Origin: Escherichia coli
GTDB lineage: Bacteria > Pseudomonadota > Gammaproteobacteria > Enterobacterales > Enterobacteriaceae
Direction: 5' to 3' (one strand)
Length of the DNA: 64,000 nucleotides
Assembly (NCBI RefSeq): GCF_003018255.1
Contig: NZ_CP027440.1
Positions 22,320-42,999 of the stretch are shown here, piece by piece. How positions within the stretch are numbered: the stretch's first letter is position 1; each line of letters starts with the position of its first letter. The notes below the pieces were generated by a model, which searched no databases, had not been told where the DNA came from, and worked only from the letters and a program-made list of their open reading frames with translations. The position numbers and the translations under genes are program-made.

Positions 22320-22439
22320 ATGTCTGGCAGTTCCCTACTCTCGCATGGGGAGACCCCACACTACCATCGGCGCTACGGCGTTTCACTTCTGAGTTCGGCA
22401 TGGGGTCAGGTGGGACCACCGCGCTACTGCCGCCAGACA
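22320..22439 (-). rRNA. rrfF: 5S rRNA, distal copy of rrnD
   Basis: 120-nt match to E. coli 5S on reverse complement; coordinates checked against an overlapping ORF frame. Confidence 0.97.
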
Positions 22440-22476
22440 AATTCTTTTCTAATCTGCCGAACTTTAACCTAAAAAG

Positions 22477-22552
22477 TGGTGCTGATACCCAGAGTCGAAC
22501 TGGGGACCTCACCCTTACCAAGGGTGCGCTCTACCAACTGAGCCATATCAGC
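22477..22552 (-). tRNA. thrV: tRNA-Thr
   Basis: 76-nt reverse-complement match to GCTGATATGGCTCAGTTGGTAGAGCGCACCCTTGGTAAGGGTGAGGTCCCCAGTTCGACTCTGGGTATCAGCACCA. Confidence 0.97.
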
Positions 22553-22564
22553 ACGCTAAATTTG

Positions 22565-22684
22565 ATGCCTGGCAGTTCCCTACTCTCGCATGGGGAGACC
22601 CCACACTACCATCGGCGCTACGGCGTTTCACTTCTGAGTTCGGCATGGGGTCAGGTGGGACCACCGCGCTAAGGCCGCCAGGCA
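22565..22684 (-). rRNA. rrfD: 5S rRNA, proximal copy of rrnD
   Basis: 120-nt match to E. coli 5S on reverse complement. Confidence 0.97.
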
Positions 22685-22781
22685 AATTCTGTTTTATCAA
22701 CACGTCTCGTTATGACATGTCGATTTAATCTGTATCAGGCTGAAAATCTTCTCTCATCCGCCAAAACATCTTCGGCGTTGT

Positions 22782-25686
<2,905 letters not shown>

Positions 25687-25860
25687 TCACAACCCGAAGA
25701 TGTTTCACTTCAGAGTTGCGAAAATTTGAGAGACTCACGAACAACTTTCGTTGTTCAGTGTTTCAATTTTCAGCTTGATCCAGATTTTTAAAGAGCAAAA
25801 CTTCGCAGTGAACCTTTGCAGGTACACTCTGAAGTATTTTTTATTTAATCACTACAGAGA

Positions 25861-25936
25861 TGGTGGAGCTATGCGGGATCGAACCGCAGACCTCCTGCGT
25901 GCAAAGCAGGCGCTCTCCCAGCTGAGCTATAGCCCC
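25861..25936 (-). tRNA. alaU: tRNA-Ala (UGC), spacer tRNA
   Basis: 76-nt reverse-complement match to tRNA-Ala-UGC; coordinates checked against an overlapping ORF frame. Confidence 0.97.
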
Positions 25937-25978
25937 ATAACATGTAGTTAAAACCTCTTCAAATTTGCCGTGCAAATT

Positions 25979-26055
<77 letters not shown>

Positions 26056-26123
26056 GTAGAGGTTTTACTGCTCATTTTCATCAGACAATCTGTGTGAGCA
26101 CTGCAAAGTACGCTTCTTTAAGG

Positions 26124-27665
<1,542 letters not shown>

Positions 27666-36796: not shown

Positions 36797-36799
36797 TTA

Positions 36800-36829
36800 A
36801 TAAGGCGTCTAATGACGCCTTATTATTTC
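36800..36829 (+). terminator. Rho-independent terminator after trkA
   Basis: AAGGCGTC-TAAT-GACGCCTT hairpin followed by T-rich tract. Confidence 0.8.
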
Positions 36830-36925: not shown

Positions 36926-37336
36926 ATGAGCATTATTAAAGAATTTCGCGAATTTGCGATGCGCGGGAACGTGGTGGATTTGGCGGTGGGTGTCATTATC
37001 GGTGCGGCATTCGGGAAGATTGTATCTTCACTGGTTGCCGATATCATTATGCCACCTCTGGGGTTATTAATTGGCGGGATCGATTTCAAACAGTTTGCTG
37101 TCACGCTACGCGATGCGCAGGGGGATATCCCTGCTGTTGTGATGCATTACGGTGTCTTCATTCAAAACGTCTTTGATTTTCTGATTGTAGCCTTTGCCAT
37201 CTTTATGGCGATTAAGCTAATCAACAAACTGAATCGGAAAAAAGAAGAACCAGCAGCCGCGCCTACACCAACTAAAGAAGAAGTATTACTGACAGAAATT
37301 CGTGATTTGCTGAAAGAGCAGAATAACCGCTCTTAA
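36926..37336 (+). CDS. mscL: Large-conductance mechanosensitive channel
   Basis: 136-aa [54 protein letters not shown]. Confidence 0.98.
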
Positions 37337-37551
37337 CAAGCGCCTGAAAGCAGAAGGCCAGTGGTAAAAAAGTGATTTACTTTCTTGCCACTGGCCTCCC
37401 AGTTCCCCCGATTGCCATGTTTTCCTTTTCGCATGTAACTGCCTTTCCCTTTCTTATTTCTCTCTACGCGCTGTCGGAATAAGGGATCATGTAGTAATGC
37501 TTCTATCGCATTATCCTTTATCTGCCCTTTAGTATGCTGATATCGGCTCAT
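37333..37551 (-). CDS. arfA: Alternative ribosome-rescue factor A (YhdL)
   Basis: 72-aa [75 protein letters not shown]; 3' end overlaps mscL stop by 4 nt. Confidence 0.92.
37355..37397 (-). promoter_or_regulatory. Stem-loop inside the arfA 3' coding region (known RNase III processing hairpin)
   Basis: 10-bp arms AGGCCAGTGG / CCACTGGCCT around a 23-nt loop; positions verified codon by codon against the arfA frame. Confidence 0.8.
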
Positions 37552-37606
37552 AAAAACTCCAATTGGTTATTTAACGGCGCGAGTGTAATCCTGCCAGTGT
37601 AAAAAA

Positions 37607-41016: not shown

Positions 41017-42999
<1,983 letters not shown>

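Follow-up and report, generated by a model that had tools for sequence, protein, structure and literature searches.

The stem-loop at the arfA/mscL convergence of Escherichia coli, a probable RNase III-cut switch in the arfA message

On the Escherichia coli chromosome, mscL and arfA run towards each other on opposite strands and meet at their ends, and a long palindrome lies inside the 3′ part of the arfA coding sequence. Which of the two transcripts does this palindrome serve, and what does it do there? We addressed the question in a stretch of E. coli DNA of 64,000 nucleotides (the window, to which all positions refer), for which a sequence-only reading had already pointed to a hairpin in the arfA mRNA. 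The palindrome at 37346-37406 is, with high confidence, the stem-loop that regulates arfA mRNA in E. coli, an RNase III-cut switch that couples ArfA to tmRNA capacity. The element is already known from several papers and from the K-12 annotation, and its recovery here adds no new biology. Its value is that of a positive control, in which a true regulatory RNA element and its mechanism were correctly named from raw sequence.

Locus and structure of the stem-loop

Several complete E. coli genomes matched an 801-nt query around the site at 100% identity; the window is E. coli chromosome, and the matched segment carries mscL, arfA and zntR. Of 5426 complete E. coli genomes, 5425 contained the query; the mscL-arfA region was absent from the remaining one, and one copy was carried on a plasmid record. 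In Shigella flexneri, arfA is reported to have been lost via an insertion element (PMC3581467). The gene order around arfA is that of K-12 (trkA-mscL / arfA-zntR). A consensus terminator scan found a terminator-like hairpin with a T tract at 36798-36825 (+), between the trkA stop, which it directly follows, and mscL; this is consistent with transcription of mscL from its own promoter.

The coding sequence of mscL, for the large-conductance mechanosensitive channel, occupies 36926-37336 on the plus strand with its TAA stop at 37334-37336, and the product passed the NCBIfam equivalog model NF001841 with 283 bits against a cutoff of 225. The arfA coding sequence lies on the minus strand at 37333-37551 and consists of 72 codons followed by the TAA stop at 37335-37333, so that nucleotide n of arfA corresponds to window position 37552 - n. 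The RefSeq record of a 100%-identical, colinear E. coli genome places mscL and arfA at the same coordinates as these open reading frames. No HMM of NCBIfam matched ArfA. The Pfam family ArfA (PF03889) did match, with E = 3e-25, and the match was limited to residues 4-45; the hairpin therefore lies outside the functional domain. When the stops are counted, the two convergent reading frames share 4 nt (37333-37336). The sequence-only reading had assigned this 4-nt overlap to the stop codons, and the number is right for the whole reading frames, but the two TAA codons themselves have just 2 nt in common (37334-37335).

The same reading had described a 10-bp stem with a 23-nt loop. The two 10-mers, AGGCCAGTGG at 37355-37364 and CCACTGGCCT at 37388-37397, were found exactly at the place given and are indeed spaced by 23 nt; these 23 nt, however, are themselves paired, and the true loop measures 5 nt. 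The earlier stem is thus the outer part of a core inverted repeat at 37355-37397, for which an inverted-repeat search returned arms of 19 nt each (37355-37373 and 37379-37397, 89% complementary) and a 5-nt spacer at 37374-37378. Nor does it fall within the last 20 codons of arfA as had been proposed, since it covers arfA nt 155-197, or codons 52-66, and starts one codon earlier. When the 43-nt core was folded alone, it gave -25.7 kcal/mol with z = -7.1, and 0 of 200 shuffled sequences were as stable.

On the arfA-sense strand, RNAfold predicted a larger structure, in which 10 bp, a C·A mismatch, 8 bp and the 5-nt loop are followed by G·U-containing pairs that extend the base of the helix to 37346-37406 (-). 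This full stem-loop corresponds to arfA nt 146-206, codons 49-69. It contains 26 pairs in all over 61 nt and has a folding energy of -32.6 kcal/mol (z = -6.2), which none of 200 shuffled sequences reached; the minus-strand folding that had been suggested as a check did return a stable structure. The helix is a long imperfect duplex of about two turns, more stable than shuffled sequence, and it is positioned 3′ of the functional N-terminal domain of ArfA and 5′ of the stop (codons 49-69 of 72). Read in the mscL sense (+), the same palindrome folded with -28.1 kcal/mol and z = -5.5.

When both strands of the 64 kb, rRNA operon included, were folded in 42,628 overlapping 61-nt windows, the arfA hairpin came out as the most stable. 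The other very stable local fold, at 18115-18190 (+), was dropped as merely G+C-rich coding sequence (z = -1.4). At the arfA site, Rfam gave no family at the gathering threshold, and at a permissive threshold the only matches were chance ones to miRNA-precursor-like hairpins, with E of at least 0.35.

Other RNA elements were seen elsewhere in the window. A complete rRNA operon at 22322-27665 (-) has two 5S genes split by a tRNA-Thr gene, and tRNA-Ile and tRNA-Ala in its spacer, which is the rrnD arrangement; an Rfam StyR-44 match lies just upstream of its 23S gene at 25694-25793. An Rfam Alpha_RBS match of 102.7 bits at 41341-41452 (-) falls in the leader of rpsM, in the alpha ribosomal-protein operon, where this autoregulatory element is expected.

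Conservation and constraint at the nucleotide level

The arfA locus was scanned with one genome per species, and the best 80 of 296 loci, all from Enterobacteriaceae, were taken further. Both protein anchors were located in 78 of these 80 loci, which form the comparative set. In all 78 the hairpin was found at the same codon offset and mscL was adjacent and convergent. Within E. coli, the hairpin occurred once per genome and always under arfA in 5425 of 5426 complete genomes. A 383-bp contig labelled Arthrobacter sp. 18067 (NZ_CACSJJ010000125.1) carried an arfA nearly identical to that of Raoultella terrigena and is most likely an assembly contamination.

Codon usage differed sharply between the two parts of the gene. 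Among the 78 loci (from the best 80 of 296), about 100% of species shared one synonymous codon at each of the arm codons 50-55 and 60-66, versus 23-88% for the commonest codon over codons 1-49, where Met1 and Tyr4, with a single codon each, are the exceptions. This freezing of the arm codons, outside the Pfam domain, is a constraint at the nucleotide level. The length of the arfA reading frame ranged from 68 to 94 aa and its overlap with mscL from 0 to 65 nt in the same 78 loci, while hairpin and mscL stop were 18-20 nt apart in 68 of them. Such a mobile arfA stop codon is as would be expected if the stop is rarely reached.

The pairing itself was examined in the 74 distinct 70-nt sequences of the set. 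Standard pairs filled 91.6% of the pair cells, against 42-63% when the partners were slid by 1-3 columns, and RNAalifold returned a consensus structure for the hairpin. The apical closing pair covaries (CG in 45, UA in 26 and UG in 3 of the 74 sequences), and one G·U pair is invariant while another is G·U in 50 of 74, both of them possible on the arfA-sense strand only. Covariation is modest overall because 10 of the 26 pairs never vary. In the codon register of the arms, a third position in the 5′ arm faces a first position in the 3′ arm, a second faces a second and a first faces a third; any compensatory double change therefore alters an amino acid, and covariation is scarce. The folding energy was not decisive between the strands, as the arfA-sense fold was the more stable in only 50 of the 78 species; hence energy alone does not show which transcript is selected.

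The structure, its statistical significance, its near-identity with K-12, its conservation and the nucleotide-level constraint are shown by the present analysis. The comparative data provide a clean case of RNA-level selection inside a coding region.

Cleavage, termination and the mscL transcript

Over the stem-loop element, K-12 and the window are identical at 60 of 61 nt with no indels, and with this single substitution K-12 coordinates therefore transfer directly. The published K-12 arfA stem-loop spans nt 146-206 (PMC10070815), which exactly coincides with the helix predicted at 37346-37406. The one differing base is at 37357, G in the window and A in K-12. It replaces a G·U pair of the arfA-sense fold with G-C, eliminates an A·C mismatch of the mscL-sense fold and is synonymous in arfA (Gly65, GGC versus GGU in K-12). 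About half of the complete E. coli genomes match the 61-nt element of the window at 99% or more.

That the message is cut, its product tagged, transcription in part ended early and mscL subject to an antisense effect is taken from the K-12 literature and would hold in the window by analogy. According to PMC3989581 and PMC8012679, RNase III cuts the K-12 stem-loop towards the 3′ end of the arfA reading frame to give a non-stop mRNA, and the truncated ArfA, which lacks 17-18 residues, is active. PMC3989581 also reports that arfA mRNA is raised by synonymous mutations that break the stem or by disruption of rnc, and that the C-termini of the K-12 ArfA products agree with the cut site. Cuts in arfA in vivo were found again by transcriptome-wide mapping (PMC6212723, Fig. 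2), at sites that partly differ from those of the first study. The proposal, made from the sequence, that RNase III cleaves the arfA hairpin to leave a non-stop mRNA and a truncated active ArfA thus matches published K-12 experiments (PMC3989581, PMC8012679, PMC6212723). It omitted that truncated K-12 ArfA is normally tmRNA-tagged and degraded, and that ArfA builds up only when trans-translation is overwhelmed (PMC3989581 and PMC8012679); the hairpin is a sensor switch, more than a maturation step. It also omitted RNase III-independent premature termination and the 54-nt fragment that is antisense to mscL.

The cut sites were transferred from K-12, where they are quoted second-hand, and could err by about 1 nt. 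The upstream cut would fall at 37387/37386 (-), that is, arfA nt 165/166, and the downstream cut at 37363/37362 (-), nt 189/190 (PMC10070815). PMC10070815 gives the K-12 cleavage products as nt 166-189 and nt 190 to the stop. The K-12-derived upstream position would leave exactly 55 codons and no stop codon. On the predicted structure the quoted K-12 sites give a 3-nt overhang, versus the canonical 2 nt. In the K-12 RefSeq annotation, the ncRNA yrdG (b4846; 3438431-3438484, minus strand), named 'arfA-derived small regulatory RNA', starts at arfA nt 166. Its 54-nt counterpart in the window is predicted at 37333-37386 (-).

As for the other strand, the same DNA had been proposed as the probable 3′-end structure of mscL, and this is supported by the stem-loop that PMC10070815 describes in the 3′ UTR of mscL, at +1 to +63/64. 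With the extent given there, the mscL 3′ UTR (+1 to +64) lies at 37337-37400 (+) and contains the palindrome in the mscL sense, with a fold of -28.1 kcal/mol. RNase III cuts this mscL stem-loop in vitro and releases a fragment of about 25 nt (PMC10070815), and a 49-nt RNA from the mscL 3′ UTR was detected in an earlier study (cited in PMC10070815). As an antisense RNA, the fragment from arfA reduces the half-life of mscL mRNA (PMC10070815). As to the features of an excludon, the reading frames overlap by 4 nt in the window, and mscL is convergent in 78 of 78 loci; an overlap of the transcripts is reported in the literature (PMC10070815, PMC12288877). PMC10070815 assigns E. coli to the 'proximal' and not the 'overlap' class, though the annotated coding sequences overlap by 4 nt.

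Three other readings of the palindrome were weighed against a cleaved arfA switch. It might have arisen by chance, belong to the repetitive extragenic-type palindromes or be bound by a protein as DNA, and the 10-mer by itself is indeed no rarer than chance in the window, with 3 matches at up to one mismatch against 3.1 expected. Such an origin is nevertheless exceedingly improbable for the top local fold in 64 kb, at z = -6 to -7 with 0/200 shuffles as stable, which is kept in 78 species (from the best 80 of 296 loci), where its synonymous sites are frozen and one pair covaries. A REP/BIME-type repeat was rejected, as each of 5425 genomes has the palindrome at a single place, invariably inside arfA, and the window contains no other copy; and against a DNA site stand the G·U pairs, which extend the helix at the RNA level only. 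Less improbable, but still unlikely, is that the hairpin is chiefly a bidirectional terminator or 3′-end protector common to mscL and arfA, with RNase III cleavage incidental. That hairpin and mscL stop are separated by 18-20 nt in 68 of 78 species would fit such a role. So would the U-rich tract UUCUGCUUUC (6 U in 10 nt) at 37345-37354 (-), directly 3′ of the arfA-sense hairpin. But the consensus terminator scan called neither strand, and the mscL-sense tail CCCAGUUCCCCC has no U tract of the kind that directly follows the G+C-rich stem of an intrinsic (Rho-independent) terminator. A helix of 26 pairs with internal mismatches also exceeds typical terminators in length and is characteristic of RNase III substrates. 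Experimental reports bear on both sides. Ju 2019, as cited in PMC10070815, has the mscL 3′ UTR end at +64, 3 nt past the stem, and in K-12 cells without RNase III a short arfA mRNA still ends just past the inverted repeat, at UUCUGCUUUC, which was read as premature termination (PMC3989581); yet the same paper reports from experiment that the arfA mRNA level depends on RNase III and that ArfA C-termini lie at the cut site. This documented dependence on RNase III leaves a pure terminator without support as the main function; on the arfA strand, termination is a documented secondary role that adds to that of RNase III and does not replace it.

The element could also exist mainly for mscL, as a cis-antisense or excludon module that tunes MscL, with self-regulation of arfA secondary. 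Normal mscL mRNA levels were restored only by arfA variants containing nt 160-203, and the arfA fragment alone lowered mscL about 3-fold (PMC10070815); mscL-arfA is among the listed convergent excludons of E. coli (PMC12288877), and the two genes are convergent and adjacent in 78 of 78 loci. We nonetheless regard an mscL-centred purpose as very unlikely. The mscL effects are about 2-fold, as against an arfA switch on which the synthetic lethal interaction between arfA and ssrA rests (PMC8012679 and PMC3989581), and the G·U pairs that extend the helix are possible in the arfA sense alone. Moreover, a non-stop arfA mRNA is general according to reviews (PMC8012679), and many bacteria with arfA, for example Pseudomonadaceae, do not have mscL beside it (PMC10070815). 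An mscL-centred role therefore cannot explain the arfA hairpins that exist where mscL is elsewhere. The antisense effect on mscL is real but modest, at about 2-fold, and the regulatory switch of the arfA mRNA remains the preferred reading of the palindrome.

Downstream of the hairpin in the mscL direction, the plus strand at 37380-37480 is C-rich and G-poor, with a GC skew of -0.4 to -0.46. Such a composition would be compatible with Rho-dependent termination of mscL and subsequent trimming of the RNA as far as the hairpin.

A second, weaker arfA-sense hairpin, AAGAGCGG UUAUU CUGCUCUU, was located at 37314-37334 (-), a position that takes in the arfA stop and the final codons of mscL. Folded alone it gave -13.4 kcal/mol with z = -1.8, and 83.8% of its cells were paired in 70 distinct sequences, versus 52-57% with the partners slid. 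Two synonymous third positions of mscL covary in it (AU 31, GC 18, GU 8), and one pair is G·U in 68 of 70 sequences, which would be an A·C mismatch in the mscL sense. The hairpin is retained in most Enterobacteriaceae and lost in Buttiauxella and some Enterobacter, and in two or three genera its pairing was kept through amino-acid changes at the MscL C-terminus (KEQNNRS to KVQNNRTL). It competes with a small terminator-like hairpin at 37342-37328 from the consensus terminator scan, which is less well conserved. The hairpin at 37314-37334 may form the 3′-end structure of read-through arfA RNA. Given its maintenance by covarying synonymous sites of mscL and by some compensatory MscL changes, it could even be the true terminator or 3′-end protector of arfA transcripts that escape the main hairpin, an idea that we hold only tentatively and consider rather doubtful. 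If true, the coding end of mscL would be partly shaped by the RNA structure of the opposite strand.

Proposed mechanism and known counterparts

Taken together with the K-12 work, the switch in the arfA mRNA would operate as follows. The arfA-sense RNA would fold into an imperfect helix of about 26 bp that is a substrate of RNase III, and cleavage of the stem at about nt 165/166 and 189/190 would take off the last 17 codons and the stop codon. On the resulting non-stop message, ribosomes would run to the end. With spare capacity of trans-translation (tmRNA/SmpB), the 55-residue product would be tagged and degraded; with tmRNA saturated or absent, untagged truncated ArfA would be released, recruit RF2 and rescue stalled ribosomes. 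In this manner the hairpin would make ArfA synthesis a readout of tmRNA capacity. Two back-up routes may assist, in that the hairpin and its U-rich tail would give some premature termination, and any full-length ArfA would be unstable through its hydrophobic tail, as is reported for K-12 (PMC3989581). For the convergent gene, the same DNA read in the opposite direction would form the terminal stem-loop in the 3′ UTR of mscL, and the 54-nt fragment freed from arfA, antisense to that UTR, would lower mscL mRNA. The hairpin would thereby tie the back-up ribosome-rescue factor ArfA to tmRNA capacity, and would also link translation stress to MscL.

Three known systems are close to the element described here. 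The closest is the stem-loop in the 3′ coding region of E. coli K-12 arfA (yhdL), which has the same gene, position (nt 146-206), neighbours and released 54-nt segment; the window differs from it by one base (37357), and no difference in function was noted. Convergent-gene excludons and bidirectional terminators likewise involve tail-to-tail genes, overlapping 3′ ends, RNase III and one palindrome for both transcripts. Unlike in excludons in general, the palindrome here is located within the coding region of one partner gene, whose active protein requires the cleavage. In other Proteobacteria, arfA hairpins act as intrinsic terminators (reviews citing Schaub et al. 2012), and these share with E. 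coli a stem-loop in the 3′ part of the reading frame, a non-stop mRNA and control by tmRNA (PMC8012679). There, however, the truncation is reported to be achieved by termination of transcription and not by RNase III, whereas the E. coli type relies on a long imperfect helix and RNase III, with termination playing a minor part (PMC3989581).
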